Part shown: positions 19,109 through 52,850 of the stretch, one piece after another | Position numbering within the stretch: position 1 is the stretch's first letter | Layout: each line of letters starts with the position of its first letter | From: an uncultured Verrucomicrobiota bacterium | Lineage (GTDB): Bacteria; Auribacterota; JABMQX01; JAFGEW01 | Direction of reading: 5' to 3' | DNA: 63,120 bases | NCBI GenBank assembly: GCA_964500825.1 | Contig: CAZCQN010000001.1 | Coordinates: 1 to 63,120 of the forward strand | Program-made: the position numbers and the translations under genes | Notes under the pieces: generated by a model | Seen by the model: the letters and a program-made list of their open reading frames with translations, nothing else | Told to the model about the DNA's origin: nothing | The model's database searches: none

Positions 19109-19127
19109 CTCCCGGACCCTCCTCTTC

Positions 19128-30726: not shown

Positions 30727-30810
30727 AGGTCAGCCCTCCGTTCCCGTTCGAGTCGACTGCCCCGGCCCAACAAGGGATTTGACAGCCGGCCGGAGCGTTT
30801 GTTCCATGTA

Positions 30811-31715: not shown

Positions 31716-31974
31716 CGACGTGAAGCTCACCTTCTCGAGCTCGTCGAGCGGGAAACGCGGAAGGGACGCTGCATCACGTGGTGGCCGCCGGCAACCACAC
31801 GGCGTCCTGCTCGATGATCAGCGCGACGCCGCGGATGACACGTTCGTTTGTCCGGTTGCCGCGTTCCTCCTTCCGGTGGGTCTTCTGTTCCTTGCTCCCG
31901 GGTGTCAGGGTCATGCTCTGAATCCGGTCTACGGGAACTGACGAGACGGGTCCCGACAGGGCGGCAGAGAATGG

Positions 31975-33672: not shown

Positions 33673-33914
33673 CCCTGCAGCCACCTCCACGCGAAGACAG
33701 CCCAACCTCACCGAAGACGAATGTGCGCGAGCCGGGAACGCAAGTCAAGAGCGAGCACGTAAGCGCGAGAAGCTCTGCCGGGCAATTGGACGCAAGCAGT
33801 CTCTTGGGGATCACAAGATGAGAGCCAACAAGAGCGTCACCGGACCGTTAGGGACACAAGAGAAAAACAGCACGAAAATGCTTCACAGTTGACGAAAGGG
33901 TGTGTTATGTTGCT

Positions 33915-34180
33915 GTGAGTTCGTGGGAGCGGGCTCTCTGCAACAGAAGACCTAGTTCACCAAATGCACTCCCGCGGCAACTGATGGCCAGAGGTGGTTC
34001 TTCCTGGGGGCGATCTCGTTAACGGGGTTCACCCGCTGAATTGCCCACTGAAGGTGGCTGGACGTGGCGACGCTGCAGCGGGAGAAACGACTCAGGGTCA
34101 GACCTGATGAGGGCGCTGACCTGGGTCATGAGGGCGACTCTGAAGCCCCGCGCCTGTGATGGGTGCGGGGCTTTTCGTGT
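33915..34180 (+). ncRNA. Candidate orphan small RNA or 5' leader ending in an intrinsic terminator (family not identified)
   Basis: 520-nt non-coding gap between divergent genes. A clear + strand terminator at 34143-34180 lies about 50 nt before the RBS of the 34232 gene. Internal helices include CCCGCTG(34032)/CAGCGGG(34076) and GGTCAG/CTGACC (34096-34121). The start coordinate is a guess; TTGACG at 33889 has no convincing -10. Confidence 0.3.
34143..34180 (+). terminator. Rho-independent terminator
   Basis: 9-bp GC-rich stem AAGCCCCGC (34143-34151) / GCGGGGCTT (34165-34173), 13-nt loop, followed by TTTTCGTGTT. Confidence 0.7.
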
Positions 34181-34231
34181 TCTGGTGAGATGACACAGGC
34201 TTCTGGTGAGCTGACGGAAGGAGGCTAGACC

Positions 34232-37437: not shown

Positions 37438-37460
37438 GGCGACTCGAGGAGAGCATCGTT

Positions 37461-39584
37461 ATGAAGCCAATGCGTCGGAGAGGGCCGTCCTCGATATGGA
37501 AATGCGGGGTCGCGTGCGGAGCCGCTGCGTTGTGCTGGGTTCTGGGTACAGCCATCGCTAGCGGCTCCTCGCTGACGCCGCATGAGGACTACGTGGAGCA
37601 GTACGAAAGCCTCGATCCGTATGACAGGCCGACGGCCTTGGAGTTGCAGGAGGCATTCCTTGCAGAAGCCGAACGGTACATCGAACAGCACCCAGGCGGA
37701 CCAGAGATCGTTCAGGCCAAGCTTAACAAGGCAATTGCCCTGAGCTCGTTTGGCCGAAACGGCGATGCAGAAGCTGACGCGTTGTTCAAGGAGATCCTGT
37801 CTGAGCACCCCGACTCGCCACTGGTCCCTGAGGTGATGTACTACCACGCAGAGCTCCTGTGGCACGGATTCAACAGGAAACGCTGCGACGAGGTTCCGGG
37901 GATCGCGCTTCAGCTCATCGAGCGATTCCCAGAGTCGGCAAAGGCACCCTTGGCACTTGTACAGGTAGCCAACAGCTGGGTTTTCGTCCCCCCAAAGGAT
38001 ACCCAGCGCGCTCGCGCGTTGTGCGAACGCGTCGTGAAGGAGTATCCGGACACGGAGGCCGAGATCGAGGCACGCTGCACTCTGCTAGACCTGGCGGTGA
38101 GAAAGCTTGACGCGAAGCTGGTAGCACAACGTGTTGACGAGCTCCTTGTTCGATTCGCCGACTCGCGCGGCATCGCGCCGCCCGCAGTATGGCGGCGTGT
38201 GTTGCTCCAGCGTGCGAGCATCAGCTGCCGCTGCGTTGGTGACCGGGCGCGCGCCGCCAAGGTGCTCGAGCAGGTCATCACCGCGTTTCCTGGCACGGGC
38301 ATGGAGCTCGAGGCACGCCGCTACCTGATTTGGTCTAACGTGGAGTCCGGCACAACCGAACGCGTCAAAGAGCTAATCGGTGAGCAAGTCAAGCGTTTCA
38401 GAGATAGCCCGGAAATCGTCTCAGCTGACATGTGGTGCTCTCTGCTGCTTGATCACGCTATACGAGCGTGCATACATAGGAAGGTAAAGGACTGGTCACT
38501 GGCAGAATCACTCTGTGCGGCGGTTATCGAGACGTGCCCTGAGTCGCATGGCTGGCTTGCTCGATACGAATTGGGGCACATCGCCGAAGCGAAGGGAGCC
38601 GTCAACGAAGCCATAGACGCTTATGGCGCCATCGTTGAGAAGTGGCTCAGCGAGTCCGCCGAGCCCGGCCCGGAGATCGTCGCCCAGGCCATCGCTCAGT
38701 CCCTGTTCGGCCTGGAGCGGCTCATTGATGGCAAGCCGGACCTGCGGCGAATTGGCATTTTCCTGCGCAAGTACAGGAATACGCCGGCAGCGGTCGGCCT
38801 TGTCAGCAGCGCGGCACTGCGCCTGGGCGAGCGTGACGAGTTGAGCCAAGCAATGGCGCTGAATGAGGAACTCCTCGCTATGCCTGGACAGGCGGCCCTC
38901 TGCCGATACTTGTCGACCATCGACCGCATGTTTCCGCCCAAGCTTGTGATCGCCTCGTGGAACAGGCCGCGGGCGTTGCCGCTTCTCAATGATCTGCTCA
39001 AGGCGGCGCGGTACTGGTCGTCCGCCCGTAAGGACCGGCTGCGGTGCAACATGGTGACCTGGCACAAGACGCAGTCTGTTTTCGACGAGGTGGCCGCGCT
39101 GCAGAAGTACTTCGCGGCCCGGGGTGAGGCCGGCCGCGTCGTCGACGCGCAACTGCTTGCCGTCCATGTAGCTGTTGAAAAGGGGCGCAAGAACCGGGCG
39201 ATCAAGTTAGCCAGCGAGTTGATGGCCCAGGATATCGATCCTGCCACCCGCCATCAGGCCGAGCTTTTATGGCTGTTCGCCGAGTACGAACGGCGAGCCG
39301 ACAAGATTGCAGACACGATTGCCGCACGGATCGAGCAGGCCGACGATCCTGACGAGAAGGCGCTTCTCCATATCCTGCTGGGCATACGTGCGTGGCGCGA
39401 ATTCGAGTTGGACGAAGCGGCGACGCATTTTGGGGCCGCCAAGGCGGTCGCACATGACCAGTATCTGCTGCAGGCAGCCCGGTGCCGATTCGACGCAATA
39501 AGAAAGATCAACGCTGCAGGGCGGACCGCCGAGCTCAAGCGCGCTTCGGCGGGGACGCCCGTATCGGTTACTGGTGAGGAATAA
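37461..39584 (+). CDS. Secreted TPR-repeat protein
   Basis: 707 aa. GAGGAGAG RBS. Signal-like N-terminus GVACGAAALCWVLGTAIASG. All-helical repeats throughout (ALVQVANSWVF.., RARALCERVVKEYPDTEAEIEARCTLLDL..). Confidence 0.7.
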   Translation: MKPMRRRGPSSIWKCGVACGAAALCWVLGTAIASGSSLTPHEDYVEQYESLDPYDRPTALELQEAFLAEAERYIEQHPGGPEIVQAKLNKAIALSSFGRNGDAEADALFKEILSEHPDSPLVPEVMYYHAELLWHGFNRKRCDEVPGIALQLIERFPESAKAPLALVQVANSWVFVPPKDTQRARALCERVVKEYPDTEAEIEARCTLLDLAVRKLDAKLVAQRVDELLVRFADSRGIAPPAVWRRVLLQRASISCRCVGDRARAAKVLEQVITAFPGTGMELEARRYLIWSNVESGTTERVKELIGEQVKRFRDSPEIVSADMWCSLLLDHAIRACIHRKVKDWSLAESLCAAVIETCPESHGWLARYELGHIAEAKGAVNEAIDAYGAIVEKWLSESAEPGPEIVAQAIAQSLFGLERLIDGKPDLRRIGIFLRKYRNTPAAVGLVSSAALRLGERDELSQAMALNEELLAMPGQAALCRYLSTIDRMFPPKLVIASWNRPRALPLLNDLLKAARYWSSARKDRLRCNMVTWHKTQSVFDEVAALQKYFAARGEAGRVVDAQLLAVHVAVEKGRKNRAIKLASELMAQDIDPATRHQAELLWLFAEYERRADKIADTIAARIEQADDPDEKALLHILLGIRAWREFELDEAATHFGAAKAVAHDQYLLQAARCRFDAIRKINAAGRTAELKRASAGTPVSVTGEE

Positions 39585-39612
39585 AGCAGTACGGCTGATT
39601 TCGGAGGTAGGA

Positions 39613-41178
39613 ATGATGGGTCGCAAGCTTGTTCTCATTTGCCTGGCACTGATCGCCATCGCGCTGGTGTCTGTGCGGGCGCAAGCTGAAAACAGGATGT
39701 TGACGGTCTCTTTCCGCGTCGAGGTTGAGACGGTCTCCGTGGGCGAGTCGCCCTGGGGCGCCTACGGTTATCCCGCCACCAAGGCGACGTTCATCCTCGA
39801 CTGGAACGACTACGACGGAACGCCTAACGGCACGCAATACAAGGTGCGCAGGTCGATCGACGGCGGAGACTGGGAAAACCTTGGCACGGTCATTGACACG
39901 CAAGGTACCCAATATGCAGATGCCATAGACCCCGTCTATTTGCCGGGCAACGCGGCCTGGGTGCAGGCGGCCGCGGAAGCGCAGGCGAAGCGCATGGCCA
40001 CCGCTGGAGGCAAAAGCACGACCTATGAGGTCTTCACTTACCCCTGCAACAACCACCGGGGAGAGATCGAACTCAATGCTGAGTGCGAGAGCAACGCTGC
40101 GGGTGGAATCGCATCGACTTCCTCGGGGAGCAGCTCGGCGGCTTCAGACGCATCAGGCAACTCGCCGACGGGGTTCTATGTCAACTACACCACCAAGCTT
40201 ATCGATACCTATGTGGGTTGGACGTCCGAACAGAACCCCGGCATCATGCGCGAGACCGACATCTGCCCCGGCTGGGTCCACAATTGGGACAAGCGCTTGG
40301 TGCGATTCGACATCGATGATGGCGGCTACAAGTATGAGCTCTGGCGCGGCACGAGCCGGATCGGCTTCTCCGAGGATGAGAATGGCGGATTTCACTGCGA
40401 TCCCGATGTCAAGAACTTCTCCGTGGTTTTGTGGACGTACTCCGACCCTGACGAGCTGCAGGTCCGCTACGGCGGCCGCGTGTACTACTTCGACTATGAC
40501 TTCAGCGGCGCAGAGGATTGGCAGAAGATCACCGAAGAGCTGAAGATCCACCAAGAGTCATCCTCAGGCTTTGATGGATACTACCTGCATTACGAGTACA
40601 ACGACACCAGCGGCTTACTCGAGACGATCAGCGACAACTCGAACACACCGCTCCTTGGCTTCTGGTACGACGACAATGACCAACTGGAGTCGGTCACGGC
40701 TAACACCGACGGCGATGATGATGCCGACGACGTGGTCGTGGCAAAACTCACGTATGATGCAGGCGAAGTCCGGATGTTGGCTCAGATCGATTACTGGCAC
40801 GGCACCGCGGAAGCGCAGACATACAAGTATTTCTATGACGACACCTACGAGAAGGTGCTCGAGCAGGAGGAGCGTCCTTCTGGCGATAGAATCGTCTACG
40901 AGTACGCCGACTTCATCGATGGCGATGCCGATTCGCGCGACATCGCCCAGAGCTTCGTGTTCCTGAACAAACAAACCGTGCAACATGGCGAAGACCCGCC
41001 CGAGACGACTAATCATCTTCGCACCGAGACTCAGGTTGTCATGGACGTGGATAGGGCCCTACAGGCTCGTCATGCGCGCGGCCGAGGGCGAGACCGGAGA
41101 CCCCACGAAGTGGTACTATACGCGCGAGTACTTCCCGAGGAAGGAAGAGGAGGGCGACGCCCTATACACGGTATATGA
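39613..41178 (+). CDS. RHS/YD-repeat toxin, 5' part (Sec signal peptide, FN3-like and unknown N-terminal domains, first YD repeats); frame breaks near 41054-41060
   Basis: ATG at 39613 with GGAGGTAGG RBS. MMGRKLVLICLALIAIALVSVRAQA signal peptide. YKVRRSIDGGDWENLGTV (FN3-like). YD-type repeats LHYEYNDTSGLLETISD, KLTYDAGEVRMLAQIDY, IVYEYADF. After ..QVVMDVDRA the frame turns into Arg-rich nonsense. Confidence 0.7.
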   Translation: MMGRKLVLICLALIAIALVSVRAQAENRMLTVSFRVEVETVSVGESPWGAYGYPATKATFILDWNDYDGTPNGTQYKVRRSIDGGDWENLGTVIDTQGTQYADAIDPVYLPGNAAWVQAAAEAQAKRMATAGGKSTTYEVFTYPCNNHRGEIELNAECESNAAGGIASTSSGSSSAASDASGNSPTGFYVNYTTKLIDTYVGWTSEQNPGIMRETDICPGWVHNWDKRLVRFDIDDGGYKYELWRGTSRIGFSEDENGGFHCDPDVKNFSVVLWTYSDPDELQVRYGGRVYYFDYDFSGAEDWQKITEELKIHQESSSGFDGYYLHYEYNDTSGLLETISDNSNTPLLGFWYDDNDQLESVTANTDGDDDADDVVVAKLTYDAGEVRMLAQIDYWHGTAEAQTYKYFYDDTYEKVLEQEERPSGDRIVYEYADFIDGDADSRDIAQSFVFLNKQTVQHGEDPPETTNHLRTETQVVMDVDRALQARHARGRGRDRRPHEVVLYARVLPEEGRGGRRPIHGI

Positions 41179-44100
41179 GTCTGAGACGGTCAGAAAGAAT
41201 GGCGATGAGTGGGAAGTCCTCTGGACGCGTACAACCAGAATCGGCCTCAAGGGAATGGTTGCAGAAACGCTTCTGGAGGGCGAGCACGACGAAGGCACCT
41301 TTTGCGAGAAAACAACGTACGAGTACAGCTTCAACGAGAACGAGGACGTGACGGAAGTCAAAAGCCGCACGCGGCGCACGAGCGGCGACCCAGCCGGCAG
41401 CTACGACTCGACGACGACGTACACGTATGCCCTGGGGAACAACAAAGTCAAGAAGACTGTAACTGAGGGCCCGGACGGCGTGAAGCACGTAACCGAGTAC
41501 ATCGTCGTCGATGAGGAGACACAATACGGCACCCTCGAGTACGCTCAGGACCGCATCGCCAAGAGCTGGACCGAGGACGCATCCGGGAACAAGACAGACG
41601 AAGTTGAGTATGCCTATTATGGCAGCGACGACTCGATGCGCAAGTTCAAGCTCGCATGGGTCCAGAACGCCTGCTGCGGGACGACTGAATACGACTGGAA
41701 CGCCGATCACACGCTCAAGAGCGTCGAGGATCCTTTGGGCAACAAGACCGAGTACGTCTATAGCTATGCTGATTCAGGGTCATTTGACCAGCCGTGGAAG
41801 GTTAAGCGGCCGGGCCAGAACGGTCAGACCCTCGAGATGGTCCACACCTACACGGCAAGCAACCAGATTGAGACGGCGACCTTTCCGCCGGCCGAGTCTG
41901 GCGCGGAGCAGTTCGTCGTCGAGTATGAATACGACGATGACGGACGGATTACGCAGGTTCGCAGAAGGTACGGCTCAACATACACCTCGCGCGTCAAGTA
42001 CGCGTATGCGACGGACGGCTCCGCCTTCCTCGAGAAGATCGAGCGGGCGGAAGACCCCAACGACGCGGGCGAGGAGTACGAGTGGGTCGTCATGGCCGCG
42101 TACACCTACGATTTGAGCGGCGCGGTGACAAAGGTCCGTAACGGCCAGGATAACCCCCAGAGCGGCGGCGACAGCGAAGTCCAGTCCATCTACGACGAGT
42201 ATGGCCGCATCGCGAAGAAGCGTGTGCGAAAGGCAGGCGCGCCCGGCACGGACGAGACGGACGACTACTTCGTCGTCACCACGTACGACTACTACCCCAA
42301 CGGCGGCATCTGGAAGGTTACCGATGCCCGTGGCGTTACCGTTGAACATGAGTATTGTGATGACAACAACGTCAACGCCGGCAAGCTCGAGACGATCGAC
42401 TTCCCGAACGACAGCGACATCGCCTACACGTATGATGCGACCACCGGCTACGTGACACAGGTCACCCAGGGCGGCTTGAGCGTCCTCTGGAGCTATGACA
42501 ACTTCGGCCGCCTCAAGCAGTACACGGACGTCTGGGGCAAGACGATCAACATTGACGGCTACGACGCGTCGGGTAGAATCACCGCATGGCGGTACCCCGG
42601 CTACTCGGCCGGGAGCGAGATCGCCTACAGCTACGACGACGTCGGCCGCCTGACGACGATCACCGACAAGATGCCGGCCGGCGACGACCAGGTCACCGAG
42701 ATCGACTACGACCAGGACACGGGCGCCATGGTCACGGTCACCCTGCCAAACGACACGGTCACCACGCTCGAATATGACAACCTCGGCCGCCTCACCGCGC
42801 TCGTGAACGCCAAGAGCGAGGGCGGCGAGACGATCACCTCGTACGCCTACGACTACACAAACAACGGCGTCCACAGCGGCTTCGGCCAGGTCGAGCAAAT
42901 CACCCACGAGGACGGCCGGTACGACACGTTCGCCTACGACGCCCACGAACGCCTCATCACCGAGCACTACCGGACGCCGCAGGACACGACGCTCTTTCGG
43001 TACGGCTATGAGTACGACGACGACGGCAACCGGCTCAGCAAGCAGTACGACGGCAATGCGAACAAGGTGGTCTGGTTCTCGGACGAGACCGACCGCACGA
43101 TGATCGACAACGACTTCGGCCCGTCAAACCAGCTGGCGCGGATGTGGACCGGAAGCGGCAAGACGACGGGCACGAAGCACACGGTCTGCGGGTCGTTCGA
43201 GGACGAGAACATCGCGTCGATCGAGGTGGTCTCCAAGACGACGGGCGACACGGAGGTCGACAGCGTGACGGCCCAGATTCGCGACGGGCTCTTCATTGCA
43301 CGGGCCCTGAACTTCTTCGACGGCTCGAACCTGGCGACGAAGGCGACGGCCACGGCGACAGATCTCGCGAACTACACGGACGTCGAGACGAACACGGGCA
43401 TTGACCTCGACACGACGTTGGATGTCTGGTACGAGTATGACGCGGCGGGCCGCCGTACGAAGAAGTGCGAGGCGGGCGAGTACGACTCGGGCGACCCGTA
43501 CACGCAGTACTACTGGAACGACGCCGGCTACCTCAAGCAGGTCGACATCGACTACGGCACGGACGCGACGCCCCGCTACGCGCGCGCGTGGCTGACGTGG
43601 GACCCAACAGGCGAGCTCGTCAAGCTCGAGATCCGGAGCGGCTCCGTCCTCACCGAGTTGACGCCCGGCTCTGGCGGCACCCTTGTCTACCTCACCAAGT
43701 GGACCTACTTCGGCGGCGCCGTCCTCGTCGAGCGTGACGAAGTCCCGGCCACCCCCAAGGAGAAGGAGTATGTCTCCGTGGCCGGCGCCTACCTCTACCA
43801 GGTCGACGCGTCCGACGCCTACTGGTATTACCGCTACGACGGTGGCGGTTCCGTCGCCGCCCTCACCGACGCCTCGGAGAACATCAAAGCCCTCTACGAA
43901 TACGACTCGTTCGGCCTCAAGCTCACCAACGCCGGCACCGTCGAGAACACTTTCGGCTTCTACGGCGGCACGCTGCTCGAGAAGGTCGGCCTCATCCACC
44001 AAGGGGGTCCGCGTTTCTACGAGGCCGAGACGGGGGTCAACCTGTCGAGGCGAAGCGACTTGGGCAACAGCACAACCAGGGCCACCTCCGTCGCCGTCGC

Positions 44101-44800
44101 GGCGCTAGCCTTCGCGGGCGCCCTAGTCCTTGCAGGTCGTGGAAGAATCCGCCGCTCGGTCGCTTTTCTTGCGATCTGCATAGGGGTCGGGGCTGTGTTG
44201 TGTCTTGTTACGGTCCCTTACGGCTTTCCCGCCGGCTCGTGGAAGTTCAATGTGACTCGTCATGCTGACCAGCCGGGCCAAGTGGACCTTGAGATAGGCT
44301 ACCGCCCCGATGCTGAGGAGGCAGAGAGATGCGAAGAGATATTCTTTCGCCAGATTGCGTGGTCGCAATACCGGACAAGACACGGGTGGCGTAACACCAA
44401 CCTGGGCGGGTGGCATTGCGACCCGCCAGGTTCCGATCGCTACCCTGACCAGAGGCCGTTGCCGCATTCCGACGGATCCGTAAGTGCAGCTATGTCAGAT
44501 GATCCCGGCCGGTCGCCAGGCGTTGGCCGTTCGAATATGCGTCAACGCTTTGAAACGTGCGCCGTATGCGAGGAGTGCGAGTCGGGCCAGCTTGTTGCTC
44601 TTTCATGCATTCGGTGGCAGCTCACCGTCTCCAACAACAGGGCACAAACGGTATTCATCCAGACAGCGGGGGACAGGGACACAGGCCGCCGACCTCTCGT
44701 GCTGCTGCCGGCCAGCGACGAGCGTGCCTGTGGTGTTATGAACATGGCGGGGCTGCCGGCCTCCGAAACCTTCCTGAGTCTGTACGATGATATGCACTGA
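40985..44800 (+). CDS. RHS/YD-repeat toxin, core and C-terminal domain (continuation of 39613 after a +1 frame change)
   Basis: The meaningful sequence starts at ..GPYRLVMRAAEGETGDPTKWYYTREYF (about 41056). Dozens of YD repeats follow (TTYTYALGNNKV, VEYAYYGSDD, YDWNADHTLKSVEDPLGNKTEYVYS, ITSYAYDYTNNG..). The core end YRYDGGGSVAALTD..YEYDSFGL..FYGG is followed by a degenerate RFYEAETGVNLSRRSDLG. The ~270-aa tail has two TM helices (SVAVAALAFAGALVLAG, VAFLAICIGVGAVLCLVTV). Confidence 0.85.
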   Translation: MAKTRPRRLIIFAPRLRLSWTWIGPYRLVMRAAEGETGDPTKWYYTREYFPRKEEEGDALYTVYESETVRKNGDEWEVLWTRTTRIGLKGMVAETLLEGEHDEGTFCEKTTYEYSFNENEDVTEVKSRTRRTSGDPAGSYDSTTTYTYALGNNKVKKTVTEGPDGVKHVTEYIVVDEETQYGTLEYAQDRIAKSWTEDASGNKTDEVEYAYYGSDDSMRKFKLAWVQNACCGTTEYDWNADHTLKSVEDPLGNKTEYVYSYADSGSFDQPWKVKRPGQNGQTLEMVHTYTASNQIETATFPPAESGAEQFVVEYEYDDDGRITQVRRRYGSTYTSRVKYAYATDGSAFLEKIERAEDPNDAGEEYEWVVMAAYTYDLSGAVTKVRNGQDNPQSGGDSEVQSIYDEYGRIAKKRVRKAGAPGTDETDDYFVVTTYDYYPNGGIWKVTDARGVTVEHEYCDDNNVNAGKLETIDFPNDSDIAYTYDATTGYVTQVTQGGLSVLWSYDNFGRLKQYTDVWGKTINIDGYDASGRITAWRYPGYSAGSEIAYSYDDVGRLTTITDKMPAGDDQVTEIDYDQDTGAMVTVTLPNDTVTTLEYDNLGRLTALVNAKSEGGETITSYAYDYTNNGVHSGFGQVEQITHEDGRYDTFAYDAHERLITEHYRTPQDTTLFRYGYEYDDDGNRLSKQYDGNANKVVWFSDETDRTMIDNDFGPSNQLARMWTGSGKTTGTKHTVCGSFEDENIASIEVVSKTTGDTEVDSVTAQIRDGLFIARALNFFDGSNLATKATATATDLANYTDVETNTGIDLDTTLDVWYEYDAAGRRTKKCEAGEYDSGDPYTQYYWNDAGYLKQVDIDYGTDATPRYARAWLTWDPTGELVKLEIRSGSVLTELTPGSGGTLVYLTKWTYFGGAVLVERDEVPATPKEKEYVSVAGAYLYQVDASDAYWYYRYDGGGSVAALTDASENIKALYEYDSFGLKLTNAGTVENTFGFYGGTLLEKVGLIHQGGPRFYEAETGVNLSRRSDLGNSTTRATSVAVAALAFAGALVLAGRGRIRRSVAFLAICIGVGAVLCLVTVPYGFPAGSWKFNVTRHADQPGQVDLEIGYRPDAEEAERCEEIFFRQIAWSQYRTRHGWRNTNLGGWHCDPPGSDRYPDQRPLPHSDGSVSAAMSDDPGRSPGVGRSNMRQRFETCAVCEECESGQLVALSCIRWQLTVSNNRAQTVFIQTAGDRDTGRRPLVLLPASDERACGVMNMAGLPASETFLSLYDDMH

Positions 44801-44825
44801 TCAAGACGTGCAGGAACGCAGTGCC

Positions 44826-46025
44826 ATGCGGTCGTGCGCACTTGTCGCGCCATGGAAGCGGCTCGTCTTTGCGGCGGCCGCGGTGCTTCTCCCGATCGTG
44901 GCTTGTGGCGAAGGCGTAAGCGCAAGCGTGGAGGTTCGCTGCGTCTACGAGACCGGTGGAGACCCGATTCCGGGAGTCATTGTCGAAGTAGTTCCGTCTG
45001 ATAGCAGTGGCCATGAGCTCAGAAGCTGGGTACTCAGGCGACGAGAAGCAAAAAGCCAAGCGACGAGTGCTGACGGCACAGCTTTGTTTCAGGGAATACC
45101 GGTGGGTGACTACGATGTTGTCGTGATGAATCCATATGATCTCTGTCACATGCGCGAGCTTGGGGCAACCAAGTTCCGGTGCATGGGCGAGTTGCCTCGC
45201 CAGACCGTGAGCCTGTCGGCCGAAAAGCCGCGGGCTGAGGTCACGTTCCGCTTGGAGAAGGGCGCAAGTCTGGAAGGGCATGTGCGAAGAAGGGGCGGAA
45301 GTCCCCTGTGTGGCGTGATGCTCAGCGTGCTCGAGCGGGATTCAGGAGAGGAAGTCGCACGTGGGGTTACCGACGACCGTGGGCATTACGAACTTAGGGG
45401 GTTGTCTGTTGGGAGGCCGGCTCTCCTTCGCATCGTTTCCACTGACTGCATCCGCCCAGATGAACTCGATCGGCTACCAGTTGTCTTCCGTCGGCCGTAT
45501 GTGCTTTGGGAAGAGGATGTGAACCCCCGCGAGATGACGAATATCGTCGACGTCCATGTGCCGACCATGTCGCTGATGACGCACGTCGATGTCCTCCAGC
45601 CCATCTGGCCGTTCCCGCGCCAGCGCGGCTTGGTGGTCGGGGTGTGGGTGGGTGATACGGCATCTCCGCCGTCCGGCATGCCCGAAATCCGATTCGACCT
45701 AGGTCATGGGACGCGCGTTGTGACATCCGGGTTGGCTTGCGAGCGCCACGAGGTTCTGCTGCCCGACATGCCAATCGGACCTGATTTGACTGCTGCTGTC
45801 GGGGTTCTTGTGCCCGATACGCGCTCCGTTCCTCGGAGCGTCCGGGATTACCGCTTGTTCAAGCAGATAAAGACTCACGCCGGCGTCGACAGGGCCGAGT
45901 TCGCCTTCCACGCGCCATACGCGATCCTGTCTCGTGTGTTTTGGGTTGCGGCGATTGCGGGGCTCATCGCGGTGCACGCCATTGTGCTCCTCCGGTGCCG
46001 CATCCGAAGGAAGACTAGGCAGTAG
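44826..46025 (+). CDS. Lipoprotein-like protein with carboxypeptidase-regulatory-like domains and a C-terminal TM; positional candidate immunity or accessory gene for the main RHS
   Basis: Start taken at MRSCALVAPWKRLVFAAAAVLLPIVAC (lipobox-like); the track ORF starts at 44787, overlapping the RHS stop. IPGVIVEVVPSD..TSADGTALFQGIPVGDYDVVV and LEGHVRRRGGSPLCGVMLSVL..TDDRGHYELRGLSVG. C-terminal helix VFWVAAIAGLIAVHAIVLL. Confidence 0.65.
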   Translation: MRSCALVAPWKRLVFAAAAVLLPIVACGEGVSASVEVRCVYETGGDPIPGVIVEVVPSDSSGHELRSWVLRRREAKSQATSADGTALFQGIPVGDYDVVVMNPYDLCHMRELGATKFRCMGELPRQTVSLSAEKPRAEVTFRLEKGASLEGHVRRRGGSPLCGVMLSVLERDSGEEVARGVTDDRGHYELRGLSVGRPALLRIVSTDCIRPDELDRLPVVFRRPYVLWEEDVNPREMTNIVDVHVPTMSLMTHVDVLQPIWPFPRQRGLVVGVWVGDTASPPSGMPEIRFDLGHGTRVVTSGLACERHEVLLPDMPIGPDLTAAVGVLVPDTRSVPRSVRDYRLFKQIKTHAGVDRAEFAFHAPYAILSRVFWVAAIAGLIAVHAIVLLRCRIRRKTRQ

Positions 46026-46034
46026 AAGGTGTAG

Positions 46035-47780
46035 CACTGGGAACGCGAGCTCGTCAACGCAAAATCCCTCGGCGGCGAGACGATCACCTCGTACGCCTAC
46101 GACTACAAGGACAACGGCGTCCACGGCGGCTTCGGCCAGGTCGAGAAGATCACGCACGAGGACGGCCGGTACGACACCTTCTCGTACGACGCCCACGAAC
46201 GCCTCGCGACCGAGCACTACCGGACGCCGCAGGACGCGACGCTGTTCCGTTACGATTACACCTACGACGACGATGGGAATAGGTACCGGAAGGAGTACCG
46301 GGACGACGATTCCCTGCGGGTGTATTATTCGGACGCTGGTGGGCAGACGTCGGACGGCGAGGATACGAACCTGGCGCCGTCCAACCGCGTCGTGCGCGCG
46401 TGGACCAAGACGGGCGCGGGCGAGAAGCTGATGGGCAACAAGCTTAACGTGACGGGCTCGTACACGGAGACGAACCTGTGGTCGATCTCGGTCGAAGCGA
46501 ACGACTCTGGCTCACCGGTGGACGCCACGTTCCGCGACGGCTTCTGGATCGCGCGCGGCGTGTCTTTGAACGATGACGACGACAACACGCTCGAGGCGAC
46601 GATCACCGACCTGGGCGAGAACTCGTCGACGTACCCCGTCTCGCCGGCCACGTACCCGACGAAGCTTGACCGCAACCTGAACGTGGCATACGAATACGAC
46701 GCCGCGGGGAACGTGAAGAAGAAGACGCACGTCGTGGATTACGACGAGGGAGGGGGCGGCACCTACATCACGCGCTACTTCTATGACGACGCCAACCGCC
46801 TCGAGTACGTCGACTACGGTTGGACGGACGACGACGACGTCCACTACGTCTACGGCCCGATCGGCCAGCGCGTCGCGATCGAGTATGGCGAGATCGACCT
46901 CGACGGCGAGGTTTTTGACGACTTCACACCCGCGTCTGCTCGAGGCTTCGTCTGCTGGGGCGGAAACGTCCTCGAGGAGTGGACCGTCAGCGGGGGCTCG
47001 CTTGGCTCTTTGGTGTATCGCTACGTGCGCAATCCCGCCACCGACCTGGGCGGCGGGATCGGCTCGATCATCTACCAGATCGACGCCGCGGAAGAACCGC
47101 GCGACTACCGCTACTACCACTACAACCACAAGGGCGACACGGGCGCGCTGACGGATGAGGATGGCGACATCGTTGCCTGGTACGAGTACGACGCCTGGGG
47201 CAACGTCGTCACCGAGTGGGAGGCGAGCGGCGTCGAGAACGAGTTCCGCTTCTCGACCAAGCAGTGGGACGCCACGCCCTCGGGCCCGCCCGACGTCGGC
47301 CTCATCTACTTCGGCGCCCGCTACCTCGACACCGAACTCGGCCGCTGGGCCCAACTCGACCCGGCCGGGACGGTCGATGGGGTCAATGTCTACGTCTATG
47401 CGCGTGGGAACCCAACAGTTGCCATAGATCCTCACGGGCTGTTGGTCTTGTGTCCCCTGCTGAGCGCGTTGTGTGATGCGTCGTACGACGCCGCAGAGGA
47501 ATCCATTAACGACATAGACTGGGATGTGACGGATGCCGAAGACCTTGCGTGCCAGCTAGAGCCAATAATGGAGCAACTCACCGCGGCAGTGGCTAACTGC
47601 ACGTTGGCGCTGCAGGTGTGCGCGGGAGAGGGCTTGGGGGTCGGAGCAGCGGATTGCTACATGAGGCTTTTCGATATTCGGGGCCTCGTAGATGACCTAG
47701 GCGATAGGGTGCTTAGATGGCTAGGTATACCTATACATGAGCCGGTTGCTCCCCCGCCCCCCGGGCACTACATCGTATGA
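46035..47780 (+). CDS. Orphan rhs C-terminal cassette 1 (core fragment plus distinct ~110-aa C-terminal tip); no start codon at the homology boundary
   Basis: The frame opens right after an in-frame TAG at 46032. LVNAKSLGGETITSYAYDYKDNGVHGGFGQVEKITHEDGRYDTFSYDAHERL matches the main gene at about 42800-42960 (LVNAKSEGGETITSYAYDYTNNGVHSGFGQVEQITHEDGRYDTFAYDAHERL). It ends with the canonical YFGARYLDTELGRWAQLDPAGTVDGVNVYVYARGNPTVAIDPHGL, then the tip LVLCPLLSALCDASYD... The first in-frame start is GTG at 46320. Confidence 0.75.
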   Translation, partial: HWERELVNAKSLGGETITSYAYDYKDNGVHGGFGQVEKITHEDGRYDTFSYDAHERLATEHYRTPQDATLFRYDYTYDDDGNRYRKEYRDDDSLRVYYSDAGGQTSDGEDTNLAPSNRVVRAWTKTGAGEKLMGNKLNVTGSYTETNLWSISVEANDSGSPVDATFRDGFWIARGVSLNDDDDNTLEATITDLGENSSTYPVSPATYPTKLDRNLNVAYEYDAAGNVKKKTHVVDYDEGGGGTYITRYFYDDANRLEYVDYGWTDDDDVHYVYGPIGQRVAIEYGEIDLDGEVFDDFTPASARGFVCWGGNVLEEWTVSGGSLGSLVYRYVRNPATDLGGGIGSIIYQIDAAEEPRDYRYYHYNHKGDTGALTDEDGDIVAWYEYDAWGNVVTEWEASGVENEFRFSTKQWDATPSGPPDVGLIYFGARYLDTELGRWAQLDPAGTVDGVNVYVYARGNPTVAIDPHGLLVLCPLLSALCDASYDAAEESINDIDWDVTDAEDLACQLEPIMEQLTAAVANCTLALQVCAGEGLGVGAADCYMRLFDIRGLVDDLGDRVLRWLGIPIHEPVAPPPPGHYIV

Positions 47781-47990
47781 GAGAATGGCCGCGGCGCCAA
47801 CGCGCGCCACGCCCGGAGTAGGCACTTGAGGAACCAGAACTCTGGGCACGGTTTGCGGTTCTTCCTGGCGAATGCAAGAAAGAGAGGCGGGCCGCGAGTT
47901 GTCATTCTTTAGCTGTCGGCGTGTGTGGGATATGGCCTTCGGCCGCGATGTTGGCACGTCTACACTGAGAATGCTGGAGTCAAGAATGGC

Positions 47991-48611
47991 ATGAAAGCGA
48001 ATCTGAGTTTGACGTTACTTGTTGCTGGTACCCTTGCGCTTGCAGCTGCGTGGGCCGGGTGCGCCGGCGATCACTCTCCTGGTAAGGCCCGCACAGCTGG
48101 TCAGGATTGTCCGCAAGCGAACAGCGAACTAAGGCAGGAAGACGATACCAGACCAGGTGTCGGACACTGGCTGCTGCTGAGGCTCGCAGCGTTCAGGGAT
48201 TCGAGCCAGATCGCGGAGTTGGTTGATGTCGACCGCTGCTCGGGCGAGCCATGGGACAAGTTGGTCTTTGTGTCAGTTCTGGCAACGGAGCAGGAAGTGG
48301 ACGCGGCACTGCCCGACGAAAACCGACCGATGAGATGCGTTGTCCGCCTATGCTCGCTGGTGGCGGACACCAATGGTGTGAGTTCGTTCCTCGTGTTCCG
48401 TGATCATCGCATCACGTTTCACGGTCGGCTCCCCGGATTCCACCTGGCTGAGCCATCCCTGTTGGTGATCAAGAGAGGCGACGGCGCACGGCTTAGACTC
48501 CAGAGGAAGCACAGTGAGCGTTGCGAAGTGTGGAAACCGGGGGATATCATAGTTGTCTCGGGCGTTCTGCGCGAAGGGGCGAAGTCAAGGCATCTCCAAG
48601 AAGAGGATTGA
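47991..48611 (+). CDS. Hypothetical lipoprotein; positional candidate immunity protein for cassette 1
   Basis: ATG at 47991 gives MKANLSLTLLVAGTLALAAAWAGC (lipobox). 206 aa, lower GC, immediately downstream of the cassette 1 tip. Confidence 0.55.
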   Translation: MKANLSLTLLVAGTLALAAAWAGCAGDHSPGKARTAGQDCPQANSELRQEDDTRPGVGHWLLLRLAAFRDSSQIAELVDVDRCSGEPWDKLVFVSVLATEQEVDAALPDENRPMRCVVRLCSLVADTNGVSSFLVFRDHRITFHGRLPGFHLAEPSLLVIKRGDGARLRLQRKHSERCEVWKPGDIIVVSGVLREGAKSRHLQEED

Positions 48612-50508
48612 GCATAGCGCCCCGGGCGCCTTGAATCTGGGGGAATCGGGAATCGGGGGACACCATGCCCGTTTCGAGGCTTCTGGGCGCGACGGCAAGG
48701 CTTCGCCTTGGTTGGACGAAGCTTCGCTTCGTCGCTCGCCGTCTGCCGGCAGACGGCTCAGCCGCCTCGGCGGCGACGGCCGGTACGACACGTTCTCGTA
48801 CGACACCGACGAACGCCTCACCACCGAGCACTACCAGACGCCGCAGCAAACGACCCTGTTCCGCTTCGACTACACCTACGACGACGACGGCAATCGGTAC
48901 CGGAAGGAATATCGTGACGACGACTCGCTGCGGGTGTATTATTCGGACGCGACCGGAGCAACAACGGACGGCGAGGACACGAACCTGGCGCCGTCGAACC
49001 GCGTCGTGCGCGCGTGGACCAAGACGGGCGCGGGCGAGAAGCTGATGGGCGACAAGCTCAACGTGACCGGGTCGTACACGGAGACGAACCTCTGGTCGAT
49101 CTCGATCGAGGCGAACGATTCTGGCTCGCCGGTGGACGCCACGTGGCGCGACGGCTTCTGGATCGCGCGCGGCGTTTCTTTGAATGATGACGACGGCAAC
49201 ACCCTCGAGGCGACGATCACCGACCTGGGCGAGAACTCGTCGACGTACCCGGTCTCGCCGGCCACGTACCCGACGAAGCTTGACCGCAACCTGAACGTGG
49301 CGTACGAGTACGACGCGGCCGGCAACATCACGAAGAAGACGCAAGTGGTCGATTACGACGCAGGCGGCAGCACCACTTACATCACCCGCTACTTCTACGA
49401 CGACGCCAACCGCCTCGAGTACATCGATTACGACTGGACGACGACCGAGGACGTCCACTACGTCTACGACCCGGTCGGCCAGCGCATCGCGATCGAGTAC
49501 GGCGAGATCGACCTCGACGGTGAGGATTTCGACGACTTCACACCCGCGTCTGCTCGCGGCTTCGTCTGCATGGGCGGCAACGTGCTCGAGGAGTGGACCG
49601 TCAGCGGCGGCTCGCTCGCTTCGTTGGTGTATCGTTACGTCCGCAACCCCGCAACAAACCTGGGCGGCGGGATCGGCTCGATTGCCTATCAGATCGACGG
49701 CGCCGACTATCGCTACTACCACTACAACCACAAGGGCGACACCGGCGCCCTCACCGATGAAGACGCAAAGATCGTCGCCTGGTACGAGTACGACGCCTGG
49801 GGCAACGTCGTGACCGAGTGGGAGGCCAGCGGCGTCGACAACGAGTTCCGCTTCTCGACCAAACAGTGGGACGCCACGCCCGCCGGCCCGCCCGACGCCG
49901 GCCCCATCTACTTCGGTGCCCGCTACCTTTCCACAGAGCTCGGCCGCTGGACCCAGCTCGACCCGGCGGGCACGGTTGACGGGTTGAACATGTATGGGTA
50001 CGTGCGACAGAATCCGCTTGAGTACACGGGCCCGTATGGTGAAGAGGGTGATGCCACGTTCGTCTTGTGTGCAGGGTTATTCGGTGTTGTGTGTGATGCG
50101 GCGCTGGGAAGGATACAGAAGTTCAAAGACCCGGATTTTATCGACACGAGGGCGTGCAGGTTCCGTCGTGTGTTGATCTGCGCGGTCGTAGGCATCCCCT
50201 TTTGCTATAGCCAGGCGTATGGCGATAACCCACCCCAGGACGAGGATGAACTCAAGCAACGCATTGACGACTACCTGAACAAGGCGTTCGATCCTTCTCC
50301 GTCCGAAGGTGACTGTGGTGATGATACCGGCGTCTTTGATAGAGTTAGAGACCAGTCACCTGCAGAACAGGAGGCGAGAGATACGGTGAGAAAGGTCGAA
50401 GACAAGGTCAGGGAAGTCCAGGAAGAGGTGGAGGATGTGGTTGAAGAGGTGGAGGAGGGAGTCGAGGAAGGAATCCGCAAGTTGCTAGGTGGCGGCCTGA
50501 GGCTTTAG
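48553..50508 (+). CDS. Orphan rhs C-terminal cassette 2 (homology to the rhs core begins at about 48770; distinct ~150-aa tip)
   Basis: From GDGRYDTFSYDTDERLTTEHYQTPQQTTLFRFDYTYDDDGNRYRKEY onward it stays collinear with cassette 1 for about 1.2 kb, with only scattered substitutions. It ends YFGARYLSTELGRWTQLDPAGTVDGLNMYGYVRQNP, then a different tip (FVLCAGLFGVVCDAALG.. and an acidic coiled tail). The first ~70 codons of the track ORF are unrelated and overlap the previous gene. Confidence 0.75.
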   Translation: MSRAFCAKGRSQGISKKRIEHSAPGALNLGESGIGGHHARFEASGRDGKASPWLDEASLRRSPSAGRRLSRLGGDGRYDTFSYDTDERLTTEHYQTPQQTTLFRFDYTYDDDGNRYRKEYRDDDSLRVYYSDATGATTDGEDTNLAPSNRVVRAWTKTGAGEKLMGDKLNVTGSYTETNLWSISIEANDSGSPVDATWRDGFWIARGVSLNDDDGNTLEATITDLGENSSTYPVSPATYPTKLDRNLNVAYEYDAAGNITKKTQVVDYDAGGSTTYITRYFYDDANRLEYIDYDWTTTEDVHYVYDPVGQRIAIEYGEIDLDGEDFDDFTPASARGFVCMGGNVLEEWTVSGGSLASLVYRYVRNPATNLGGGIGSIAYQIDGADYRYYHYNHKGDTGALTDEDAKIVAWYEYDAWGNVVTEWEASGVDNEFRFSTKQWDATPAGPPDAGPIYFGARYLSTELGRWTQLDPAGTVDGLNMYGYVRQNPLEYTGPYGEEGDATFVLCAGLFGVVCDAALGRIQKFKDPDFIDTRACRFRRVLICAVVGIPFCYSQAYGDNPPQDEDELKQRIDDYLNKAFDPSPSEGDCGDDTGVFDRVRDQSPAEQEARDTVRKVEDKVREVQEEVEDVVEEVEEGVEEGIRKLLGGGLRL

Positions 50509-50509
50509 C

Positions 50510-51013
50510 ATGGGGTGGTTGGTCGTCCTGGCGGGCTTCTGCTTGCTTTTGGCCCTGCGAGAGCTGAGGGTTTATGTGAGACTGCGAGCCCCCTGCTATG
50601 CCATTGTCGCATCCGGCCTGGCGCTGGCGTTGCCCGCAGGTTGCTGTCATCTCGCGGGGTTCGATATCGCAACCTGCATTCTGGTGGGGCTCTTGCTTTC
50701 AGCGTACGTGTTCGGCAGTTGGCTTCGGTCTCGTGCGTACGCGGGCCTTGACAGAGCGGCGTTTACCCGCATTACGACAGTACAGCGCTTGCTCGGGGAA
50801 GTGCGTCGAGACGTGGCCTCGGACTTCGATAGAGCTGCACTTCTGCCGCGGTTGCGACTCCAGATTGCCAGCGTTTTCTTGCCTGCGGTGTGTGGTGCTG
50901 CCCTTCTGTTCGTCCTGATGCCCAGGCTGAGCGCCTTTGCCTATACGATCTTCTCATTTGGCGTGGCGTGGGGAGCCTTGGCTGCCATGTGTACACGTCT
51001 ATGCAAAACCTGA
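50510..51013 (+). CDS. Multi-pass membrane protein; positional candidate immunity protein for cassette 2
   Basis: 167 aa, ATG 2 nt after the cassette 2 stop. About five hydrophobic helices (WLVVLAGFCLLLAL, IVASGLALALPAG, CILVGLLLSAYVFG, VFLPAVCGAALLFVLM, YTIFSFGVAWGALAAM). Confidence 0.6.
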   Translation: MGWLVVLAGFCLLLALRELRVYVRLRAPCYAIVASGLALALPAGCCHLAGFDIATCILVGLLLSAYVFGSWLRSRAYAGLDRAAFTRITTVQRLLGEVRRDVASDFDRAALLPRLRLQIASVFLPAVCGAALLFVLMPRLSAFAYTIFSFGVAWGALAAMCTRLCKT

Positions 51014-51023
51014 GGGCCTTCGA

Positions 51024-51157
51024 GCCGCAGGACACGACCCTCTTCCGCTACGACTACGGCTGTGGCTGCGCCACAGCTTGTACGACGACGACGGCAACCG
51101 GCTGAGCAAGCAGTACGACGGCAATGCGAACAAGGTGGTCTGGTTCTCGGACGAGAC
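51024..51157 (+). pseudogene. Short rhs core fragment of the main-gene type
   Basis: GCCGCAGGACACGACCCTCTTCCGCTACGAC..TACGACGACGACGGCAACCGGCTGAGCAAGCAGTACGACGGCAATGCGAACAAGGTGGTCTGGTTCTCGGACGAGAC matches 42978-43088 of the main gene. It is interrupted by a small palindromic insertion GCTGTGGCTGCGCCACAGC. Similarity stops abruptly at 51157. Confidence 0.8.
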
Positions 51158-51359
51158 AAGCCCCGACGGCTCACGACATCTCCGGCAGGCGTCGCGTTCC
51201 TGGGGACAAACTGGGGACACAAACAAGTCAAAACAGACGCGGAAAGACCGAAGCAGACTCAAACAGAATGAAGTCGATTCAGTGCCGGAAGCCGCTCGAC
51301 GCAAGGAAGATGCGACGCAACGCCTTACTGGCGAGCGATTTCCGAAAACGGTGGGGATA
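51158..51359 (+). repeat. tRNA-Leu trailer module, copy C
   Basis: CTCACGAC (M1-like, 51170), CCTGGGGACAAACTGGGGACACA (M2, 51199-51221), block GTGCCGGAAGCCGCTCGACGCAAGGAAGATGC. Collinear with copy B over about 175 nt. Confidence 0.75.
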
Positions 51360-51414
51360 GGACTTAAAATCCCCTGGGCTTCGGCCCGTGTGGGTTCAAC
51401 TCCCACCCCCGGCA
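51360..51414 (+). pseudogene. 3' part of tRNA-Leu(UAA), anticodon stem to discriminator; direct repeat of 13344-13398
   Basis: GGACTTAAAATCCCCTGGGCTTCGGCCCGTGTGGGTTCAACTCCCACCCCCGGCA differs from 13344-13398 at 3 of 55 positions. No D arm or 5' acceptor lies upstream. Confidence 0.85.
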
Positions 51415-51434: not shown

Positions 51435-52850
51435 CTACTCAGAGGCCGGTGTGTGCTCGTCGGCGGGTTCCGATCGACGTGCCCGGAAGCGCGCCACGAG
51501 CGTGCTCAGGCCCCAGCCGGCGTAGACCGCCAGCAGTGGCATGAACGGGACGCGGAAGCGCGGGTCCGCTTCGGGCCCCGCCGAGAGGACGATGAAGTAG
51601 ACGATGACGCCGCAGACGAGGACGTGGGCGGCGCGGTGCTCGCTGCCGCCGCGCACGAGACGCCACACGCCATACAGCACGCAGATGTAGAGCACGAGCA
51701 GGTACGCCATCTCGTAGCCGAACGCGGCGAACAGCAGCGGCCGGCCCACGACCCACTTGCGGACGTACGCGCCCGGCGCGAGCCGAAACACGTCGCCGAA
51801 CGGGCTCGCGTACAGCTCCTCGCCGGTCAGGTAGCGCACGAGCAGCACCTGCGCCGGCGCCACGAGCACATCGGGCGTCTCGCGCACGGCCATCCGGACG
51901 TACAGGACGGGGTGGCGGCGCATCAGGGCGGACCCTTCGCGCGCGTAGAGCTCGGACTTCTCCGCGTCCGACCACCCCTCCATCGATGGGAGCGATTCGC
52001 GGATCCGCTCCCGCGCCTCGTCGAGGCTGATGCCGTCGCGGAGCGCCACGATCCCCGTGCCCCGGCACCACAGCAGGTTGTGGCCCCGGATGTGGCTCAG
52101 ATCGCTGCTGCCGCTGACGCAGTAGTTGCGCACCTGCCAGCCGCCGACGAGCACGACCGACGGCGCCACGACGACGAGCGCCACCACGATAACCCTTGTC
52201 CACTTCATCTTTGAGCAGACGCCCCACGCGAGCAAGCCGATCACGAGCGGAAGGACGAGATAGTAGCTGATCGGCCGCACGAGCGTCGCCAGCGCGAGCG
52301 CACCGCCCAACAAGAGCGCCCACCAGCTCCGCGCGCGCTCGTCCGAGAGCATGCGAACGCCGGCGGCCACGGCGATCACCACAAGGAACGTGAACAGCGT
52401 GTCGCTCAGCAGCTTCTGCGACGAGGCGAACGACATGACGTCGAATGTCAGCAGCAGCGCGGCGACAAGCGCCGGCCCCGGCCCCCAGAGCCGCCTTGCC
52501 ACGGCGGAGGCGATCCAGATCGTAGCGACGCTCACGATGACCTGGAGCGCGATCACGGGAAAGTGCCGCTCGCCGAAAACGAGGTAGACGGCCGCGATGA
52601 ACGCCGGGTAGCCAGGCGTGCGGAGCGTCTCGGGCACGTCGGGCGTCTCCGGGCTCGCCGCGAACCGGCCCACCTGCACCAGGGCGCGCGCGGGATTCTC
52701 GTAGCTGGGCGAGTCGCCGGCGAGCACGCGCCCCGGCTCGATCGAGTACAGGGCGACCAGCGCCGCCAGCCGCAGCACGAGCGCCACAGCAAGGATCACG
52801 ACGAGTATCCGCACGTGCTTGCGGCCCGACGAGTGCGCGTCTGCGTTCAC
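51435..52850 (-). CDS. Integral-membrane glycosyltransferase, GT39/GT83 (PMT/ArnT-like) family
   Basis: 471 aa with more than 10 TM helices. N-terminal loop GDSPSYENPARALVQVGRF..TLRTPGYPAFIAAVYLVFG is typical of ArnT/PMT_2-type glycosyltransferases. A soluble C-proximal loop is followed by the last TMs. Confidence 0.7.
   Translation of the reverse strand: MNADAHSSGRKHVRILVVILAVALVLRLAALVALYSIEPGRVLAGDSPSYENPARALVQVGRFAASPETPDVPETLRTPGYPAFIAAVYLVFGERHFPVIALQVIVSVATIWIASAVARRLWGPGPALVAALLLTFDVMSFASSQKLLSDTLFTFLVVIAVAAGVRMLSDERARSWWALLLGGALALATLVRPISYYLVLPLVIGLLAWGVCSKMKWTRVIVVALVVVAPSVVLVGGWQVRNYCVSGSSDLSHIRGHNLLWCRGTGIVALRDGISLDEARERIRESLPSMEGWSDAEKSELYAREGSALMRRHPVLYVRMAVRETPDVLVAPAQVLLVRYLTGEELYASPFGDVFRLAPGAYVRKWVVGRPLLFAAFGYEMAYLLVLYICVLYGVWRLVRGGSEHRAAHVLVCGVIVYFIVLSAGPEADPRFRVPFMPLLAVYAGWGLSTLVARFRARRSEPADEHTPASE

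Follow-up and report, generated by a model that had tools for sequence, protein, structure and literature searches.

Background

The attP site of phage lambda carries arm-type integrase binding sites, P1/P2 and P'1-3. In E. coli, the leuX- and selC-associated pathogenicity islands are anchored at tRNA genes, and their integrases have decayed. Islands integrated in tRNA genes (tDNA islands) carry a regenerated tDNA and a displaced fragment at their ends, and tandem arrays of such islands have been described (PMC4383910). Here we analyse a locus at tRNA-Leu(UAA) within a 63,120-nt stretch of DNA from an uncultured PVC-group bacterium (hereafter the window). It is clearly, if in an ordinary way, a tandem array of decayed islands that integrated in a tRNA gene and belong to the anticodon-centred class, and its mechanism is a textbook one. 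Among the features used by Islander to recognise tDNA islands, the locus shows the intact tRNA, a co-oriented fragment that starts at a canonical crossover sublocation (anticodon) and an empty site, while an integrase gene is missing.

Results

The right border and the empty site

ARAGORN places the complete tRNA-Leu(UAA) at 13315-13399, and Rfam places it at 13316-13398 (52.9 bits). A repeat finder detected a direct repeat of its 3' part far downstream on the same (+) strand: 51360-51414 is identical to 13344-13398 at 52 of 55 positions (95%) and covers the tRNA from its anticodon stem (position 29/30) through to the discriminator base. In a sliding comparison across the whole window and both strands, the best score of the 55-mer outside tRNA genes was 32/55, so the repeat, already reported with the same 52 matches in an initial annotation of this DNA, is not due to chance. 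Upstream of it lies a scrap of rhs sequence of ~135 nt (51024-51157) that is frameshifted relative to the main rhs gene, one piece (51080-51157) being 99% identical to 43012-43089 and another (51024-51056) 88% identical to 42976-43008. Repeat alignment confirmed that rhs similarity stops abruptly at 51157, as the initial annotation had stated; the repeat module (copy C) that it placed ~10 nt further on in fact starts ~40 nt past this point, at 51198, where similarity to the other module copies sets in with the first CTGGGGACA arm site. The order of rhs scrap, module, tRNA fragment and glycosyltransferase is base-for-base the same in contigs from 7 independent samples, therefore the right end is not an assembly artefact; the junction is occupied in all 7 sample assemblies.

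Two loci of a related genome, L105 (a 34-kb contig) and L106, have the empty site. In both, the order is tRNA-Leu(CAA), 216 nt, tRNA-Leu(UAA), 39 nt and an ortholog of the glycosyltransferase (P0122 on L105, 64% at the amino-acid level), in the convergent orientation found in the window, and none of the 38 kb is present. The L105 contig reads FHA/GAF/SpoIIE, a permease remnant, three small ORFs, the glycosyltransferase and tRNA-Leu(UAA), followed by tRNA-Leu(CAA), a 272-aa gene, FloA, two NfeD genes and tRNA-Ala. By BLASTN, L105 10016-11481 matches window 52823-51360, from the glycosyltransferase through the tRNA 3' half, and L105 11479-11585 matches window 13260-13155, the tRNA 5' half with its upstream region. 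As the single L105 tRNA is split between 13260 and 51360, the insert comprises 13261-51359, or 38,099 nt. The stretch 51360-51414 is colinear with the L105 tRNA 3' half and glycosyltransferase, and in all likelihood represents the 3' half that once belonged to the chromosomal tRNA-Leu(UAA) gene and the right border of ~38 kb of foreign DNA. The synteny comparison that the initial annotation had suggested, i.e. whether tRNA-Leu(UAA) directly adjoins the 51435 glycosyltransferase in relatives, thus came out in favour of its candidate boundary at 51414, beyond which, also as claimed, core-type genes resume with this glycosyltransferase. From the borders it gave for the insert (13399-51359) the right one stands, while the left one moves to 13261, the native 5' half being displaced too. 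With regard to gain here versus loss in L105 the comparison is unrooted and covers few relatives; either polarity implies site-specific insertion or excision.

The locus is occupied in L108 (permease 80% at the nucleotide level, glycosyltransferase 61% at the amino-acid level), where an attR composed of arm sites TTCTGGTGACCATCTGGGGACAC, ~125 nt and the tRNA-Leu(UAA) 3' half lies ~0.9 kb from the glycosyltransferase, and the displaced half has the T loop TTCAACT in common with fragment C, the 3' fragment at 51360-51414. This fourth P-arm copy ends an island at the same locus, near the glycosyltransferase and permease, and its matching anatomy supports fragment C as the native half and the module as the conserved right end of an island family. 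In the closest relative with a right-flank contig, L023 (permease 81% identical), neither the glycosyltransferase nor a tRNA was found beside the permease, showing that the neighbourhood is rearranged in some lineages. A search of genome contigs returned no relatives of the glycosyltransferase. On the 3.6-kb contig L109 (JGI Ga0568915_0080772), which has no intact tRNA, a degenerate tRNA-like fragment (2569-2634) directly follows the glycosyltransferase ortholog, and this locus is probably occupied too.

The composition of the insert sets it apart from its surroundings: GC is ~0.62 (0.622 and 0.616 in its two halves) versus 0.67-0.69 in the flanks, and GC3 is 0.55-0.85 (0.55-0.84 in island 1) versus mostly 0.88-0.97 in the flanking core genes. 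This compositional contrast supports a foreign origin of the insert.

Two other spots near the locus are variable. The 6.3 kb at 6806-13154, which separate tRNA-Leu(CAA) from the native sequence upstream of tRNA-Leu(UAA), encode CheX, a CheA-like kinase, small ORFs and an ECF-sigma fusion gene (11132-13060), have a GC of 0.653 versus 0.686 to their left, and are absent from L105, whose two tRNAs are 216 nt apart. Integrases of the family described below occur right after tRNA-Leu(CAA) in relatives, and no tRNA-Leu(CAA) fragment or att repeat bounding 6806-13154 was found in the window; the segment may be an older, fully scar-less island, or may have been deleted in L105. The second, small variable spot is 53055-54074, a minus-strand 339-aa gene with no Pfam match and a GC3 of 0.73, situated between the glycosyltransferase and the permease (GC3 0.92-0.94). 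These two genes are adjacent in L108, and other small ORFs separate them in L105.

The module as a probable att arm

There are three copies of the module in the window (A, 13459-13668; B, 31156-31369; C, 51199-51414), each of ~215 nt and 71-77% identical to one another (B and C, 77% over 181 nt). Every copy is composed of a pair of CTGGGGACA-type sites 11 nt apart, ~125 nt and a tRNA-Leu 3' fragment. The 9-mer CTGGGGACA occurs six times in the 63 kb, each time on the + strand and within an att arm, where 0.53 occurrences are expected; none of 100 shuffles reached this count. In addition, a proximal P' motif follows the complete tRNA as well as the internal fragments (13399-13427, 13669-13697, 31370-31400, 31493-31522 and 31613-31642), and twice in the window this motif is succeeded by arm sites and then by a minus-strand remnant of an integrase C-terminus.

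Screening of GTDB genomes for the arm-site pair gave one match, L001, from a MAG labelled Verrucomicrobiota. Here the arm sites, 62 nt downstream of tRNA-Leu(CAA) and preceded by the motif CCAACCACTTACGACTCA, end at the stop codon of a convergent integrase gene encoding a 360-aa tyrosine-type enzyme, with an HTH excisionase-like ORF next to it. The same MAG has a second element right after tRNA-Leu(UAA), with an integrase 79% identical to the first, and the sigma-factor gene upstream of this element is syntenic with window 11062-13086. P' motif and arm sites were found between tRNA-Leu(CAA or UAA) and an intact integrase in seven loci (L001, L014, L015, L005, L012, L013 and L103), the integrases being 345-360 aa long and of the tyrosine type (PF14659/PF00589). 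The 9-mer CTGGGGACA itself adjoins the integrase in L001 and L014, and the arm-site sequence varies within the family, L005 having CTGGTGCCG; the HTH excisionase-like gene is present in L001 and L005. In the more distant relative L103 (integrase 63% identical) the same arrangement stands at tRNA-Leu(CAA), in a tRNA-Ala/NfeD/FloA neighbourhood shared with the window. Pfam assigns PF24624 Int_N, SAM_3 and PF14659 to the N-terminal parts of the family integrases, which points to putative domains of the arm-binding type.

Since the same motifs adjoin intact integrases in relatives, the module is best read as the P arm of attP and the block of motif and arm sites as its P' arm, the CTGGGGACA-type repeats being candidate arm sites. 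The predicted attP measures ~315 bp and would run from paired CTGGGGACA arm sites through a ~125-nt body and a 55-nt copy of the tRNA 3' part to the motif TTCTTCATTCCCAACCACTTACGACTCA, a spacer of ~30 nt, a second pair of arm sites and the integrase stop codon. It was pieced together from separate attL and attR examples, since none of the relatives yielded a complete element with its two ends. When genome and metagenome contigs were scanned for the integrase, only attL sides emerged: L013 contains 10 kb of element interior without an attR, and the elements in L103 and L115 also exceed 10 kb. In their first 10 kb (1-10000), L103 and L115 (integrases 63% and 50%) share ThiF-like and DUF87/HerA-like ATPase genes and an HTH_17 excisionase, and L103 also carries ribonucleotide reductase; cargo and core modules thus differ widely across the integrase family. 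L116 (integrase 50%, from a low-GC organism) was set aside as a comparison because its arrangement is different, the tRNA fragments pointing in the same direction as int.

Against Rfam, the module gave no family and only the three tRNAs of the window matched, hence it is not a known RNA. A small ORF in the P-arm body was rejected as coding, not being conserved among copies A, B, C and L108, and the P-arm pattern was not found in viral contigs.

Two probable islands, att scars and integrase remnants

The features of the insert and its junctions are collected in the table.

Table. Proposed layout of the insert and of its chromosomal borders (window coordinates; arm and island assignments are putative).
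Feature	Position	Strand	Content and basis
Native upstream region and native tRNA 5' half	13155..13260	+	Left chromosomal junction
Unique spacer, 55 nt	13261..13315	+	Between displaced 5' half and complete tRNA copy
Complete tRNA-Leu(UAA)	13316..13398	+	Inside inserted DNA; regenerated tDNA (attL core); ARAGORN, Rfam
Solo-att scar, circular permutation of attP without interior	13399..13668	+	P' motif 13399-13427, spacer, arm sites 13459-13495, P-arm body 13496-13613, degenerate tRNA 3' fragment A 13614-13668; alignment to L005 and copies B and C
P' arm of island 1	13669..13766	+	Proximal motif 13669-13697, degenerate arm sites 13729-13766
Integrase pseudogene stub 1, last 36 codons	13767..13874	-	tblastn; catalytic Tyr region degenerate
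Island 1 cargo	13875..31155		Small ORFs, 1196-aa CarboxypepD_reg protein, 3681-aa BlaR1-like (Peptidase_M56) giant, BlaI; Pfam
P arm copy B and fragment B1 (attR of island 1)	31156..31369	+	Arm sites 31156-31192 and body; fragment B1 31317-31369
att-scar array	31370..31642	+	Motif 31370-31400; fragment B2 31435-31492 with motif 31493-31522; fragment B3 31558-31612 with motif 31613-31642
Arm sites B2, part of island 2 P' arm	31673..31709	+	CTGGGGACA at 31685
Integrase pseudogene stub 2, 16 C-terminal codons	31713..31760	-	tblastn
Island 2 cargo	31761..51197		DUF1573 protein, TPR proteins, main rhs 40985-44800, two orphan rhs cassettes, scrap 51024-51157; Pfam
P arm copy C	51198..51359	+	Arm sites 51199-51235 and ~125-nt body; right end of insert
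Probable native tRNA-Leu(UAA) 3' half, displaced (attR core)	51360..51414	+	Right island boundary; 52/55 to 13344-13398
Glycosyltransferase (PMT_2)	51435..52850	-	First core gene right of insert; GC3 0.92; Pfam

The complete tRNA together with what follows it (13316-13474) is 87% identical to the tRNA and P' arm of L005, and, beginning at the arm sites, the solo-att scar can be aligned to copies B and C of the module. An alignment was also obtained between the P' arm of island 1 and the attL regions found in L001, L005 and L015; the match with L005 (1019-1164 versus window 13682-13827) amounts to 69% identity with E 1.6e-10. The corresponding match of island 2 is with L001 (1263-1333 versus window 31676-31745; 79%, E 2e-9). 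Directly after each P' arm lies a remnant of an integrase gene, one per island and neither of them functional. Stub 1 is 44% identical to residues 316-349 of the L005 integrase (pairwise E 6e-8), and stub 2 is identical at 10 of 16 positions to residues 342-357 of the L001 integrase (pairwise E 4e-5). Neither an intact integrase nor any further integrase or excisionase sequence was found in the 38 kb, with no Phage_integrase Pfam match among the island ORFs. The loss of the integrase suspected in the initial annotation is therefore correct, the two C-terminal stubs being all that remains. Each island is also closed by its own tDNA fragment following a P arm, B1 in island 1 and C in island 2, and each unit of the att-scar array consists of a degenerate tRNA 3' fragment and a P' proximal motif. 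Fragment B1 combines the UAA anticodon loop with variable and T arms of the Leu(CAA) type, is 84% identical to the L105 tRNA-Leu(CAA), and may be a chimera produced by an element moving between the two tRNA-Leu genes.

Very probably, then, the array consists in tandem of the solo-att scar (13399-13668), island 1 (13669-31369), two scars (31370-31612) and island 2 (31613-51414). Of "one or several tandem islands", as the initial annotation had it, several is thus the better reading, in the form of two islands plus att scars. Divergence is much greater in fragments A, B2 and B3 than in fragment C. Strictly sequential integration at the intact tRNA predicts that fragment C is the oldest, yet it is the best preserved, which counts against the tandem reading in this form; integration at other core copies, or scars travelling within attP, may account for its preservation.

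Links to the cargo of integrase-bearing elements are seen in island 2, where the TPR gene 34334-34867 shows 44% amino-acid identity over 178 aa to cargo of L013, and 37635-37892 shows 35% identity over 86 aa to cargo of the L014 element. The RHS locus (40985-51157) is made up of the main gene and orphan C-terminal cassettes at 46035-47780 and 48553-50508, with repeats of 84-88% identity, and the small ORFs between the cassettes may be immunity genes. In island 1, an 89-nt repeat of 85% identity (15501-15589 and 19110-19198) lies at the 3' ends of the CarboxypepD_reg and BlaR1-like genes, so the two proteins share a related C-terminus.

The left junction

The native 5' half corresponds to tRNA positions 1-31 (13230-13260) and ends at position 31. 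With its upstream region it aligns to L105 11585-11479 (80%) and L005 865-953 (88%), where the matching segments are the upstream region and the 5' half of an uninterrupted tRNA; the first 31 nt of the complete tRNA are identical to 13230-13260. The 55-nt spacer between the two has no match in the window or in any retrieved locus, and its local alignments with the P arms and with the relatives' spacers were no better than those of shuffled sequences. After a classical exchange no piece of the 5' side should be present, and to find the native 5' half 55 nt upstream of a whole tRNA counts against the simple model. This half could be what is left of another island, one that displaced the 5' side, a class of which Islander lists 159 (PMC4383910). 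Alternatively, an aberrant integrase-mediated deletion in an element carrying a full tRNA, or a small template-switch insertion, could have produced the anomaly. A single-event model, in which an island with its own tRNA recombined at both observed junctions, was discarded, as attP and attB would share only TGGGGA and have no common overlap. The left junction and the full 38-kb continuity come from one assembly, and the independent contig L114 ends at ~13200, short of the junction.

A palindromic REP-like sequence (CTCTCGCAGAGACGCAGAG...CTCTGCGTCTCTGCGAGAG) occupies window 13070-13140 after the sigma-factor gene, and independent contigs break near it. Ahead of the L005 tRNA (393-765), pieces of the sequence next to it (window 13154-13202) recur in direct as well as inverted orientation.

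Discussion

We propose that integrative elements of one family entered tRNA-Leu(UAA) at the anticodon stem-loop and pushed its 3' half 38 kb away. The family tyrosine integrase would recombine the ~315-bp attP with tRNA-Leu genes, with strand exchange in the anticodon stem-loop. As attP carries the tRNA 3' half, integration would regenerate a working tRNA gene on the left and leave the P arm and the old 3' half on the right, where module copy C and the 55-nt repeat are found. Repeated integrations, in a number and order suggested by the att arms, would have stacked islands at one tRNA. The element that gave rise to the solo-att scar was probably deleted by recombination between its 37-nt arm-site blocks, and both integrase genes would later have been deleted down to stubs of 36 and 16 codons. 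With the integrases so reduced, the islands would be fixed unless an integrase acts in trans. A broader reading can be imagined, in which elements switch between the CAA and UAA tRNA-Leu genes and make chimeric tRNAs, at least one of them brought the complete tRNA-Leu(UAA), not just a 3' half, and thereby displaced both native halves, and recombination between P and P' arm repeats erases elements; we hold it to be a speculative possibility, more doubtful than not.

The tandem array has to be weighed against a single composite 38-kb island, integrated once, in which the att-like blocks at 31.1-31.7 and 13.4-13.8 kb are older scars of imprecise excisions. Such scars travelling inside would be expected to show the much greater degeneracy seen in internal fragments A, B2 and B3 than in terminal C, and the GC of the two halves is near-equal (0.622 and 0.616). 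However, each proposed island possesses full ordered ends (P' motif, arm sites and stub on one side; arm sites, body and tRNA fragment on the other), and the identity of P arm B to P arm C is no higher than 77%, as expected of separate elements, which makes the composite island unlikely. That the 38 kb are ancestral and were lost in L105, the fragment stemming from an old local tRNA-Leu duplication, is highly improbable, even though gain and loss are unrooted with few relatives and the two tRNA-Leu genes side by side in L105 prove that local duplication happens. It is contradicted by the module in front of the fragment, whose arm sites recur beside intact integrases in relatives, by the integrase stubs, by the atypical composition and by the exact split of the L105 tRNA between the segment ends; furthermore, a loss restoring an intact tRNA beside the glycosyltransferase is the very outcome that site-specific excision gives.

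The three ~215-nt copies of 71-77% identity with their tRNA-like ends might also suggest a small element of independent origin, mobile or encoding a structured RNA (a MITE or a repeat derived from a tRNA), lying near the rhs scrap and unrelated to the borders. Nevertheless, Rfam recognises nothing besides the real tRNAs, terminal inverted repeats are missing, the rhs sequence does not resume after the module, and copies stand only at positions predicted for attR, including the L108 copy at the island/chromosome junction of the same locus, so that we find this explanation hard to credit. An assembly artefact, in which tRNA or rhs repeats led to a false join in a chimeric MAG contig, would fit the breaks of independent contigs inside the rhs/module repeats and near 13200, but is scarcely conceivable in view of right-end junctions that are identical in 7 samples, left-junction repeats (31 nt) that are shorter than usual assembly k-mers, and the coherent internal order of att arms and integrase stubs.

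The borders of the tandem array, 13261-51359, enclose 38 kb that an uncultured PVC-group bacterium from a poorly studied lineage acquired by horizontal transfer. The RHS polymorphic-toxin locus and the BlaI/giant BlaR1-type block both lie within them and are thus accessory, not core, traits. For a family of tyrosine integrases that target tRNA-Leu in Verrucomicrobiota-labelled MAGs, the locus moreover yields candidate arm sites together with an attB and a reconstructed attP, a set that could serve island annotation in these genomes or as a start for integration tools. Points of specialist interest are limited to the stages of decay, which are legible, and to the unusual left junction.

By analogy only, the solo-att scar resembles the solo LTRs of retroelements, products of recombination between direct repeats with the whole interior deleted, although another element type and other enzymes are concerned and the mechanism here is deduced. 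As in the lambda attP, a short motif recurs on both arms; here the putative site CTGGGGACA is directly repeated 11 nt apart on each, ~125-160 nt to the left and 60-97 nt to the right of the core; the core is, however, a tRNA anticodon stem-loop, and the sequence of the candidate sites varies within the family. With the tDNA islands found by Islander/TIGER (PMC4383910) the locus has in common the intact tRNA at one end and a co-oriented 3' fragment from the anticodon stem at the other, a tyrosine-integrase family, the stacking of islands at one tDNA and the empty site in a relative. It differs from them in that both integrases are stubs of 16-36 codons, which Islander's integrase filter would reject, in the displaced 5' half 55 nt upstream of a complete tRNA, and in the extra att scars between the islands. 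Like the anchored pathogenicity islands, it holds cargo of foreign origin (RHS toxin cassettes and a sensor of the BlaI/BlaR1 type) that became fixed at a tRNA once the integrase was lost, with the direct repeat surviving, whereas the host is an uncultured PVC-group bacterium (its relatives being labelled Verrucomicrobiota), the cargo is not made up of known virulence genes and the att arms are unusually legible.
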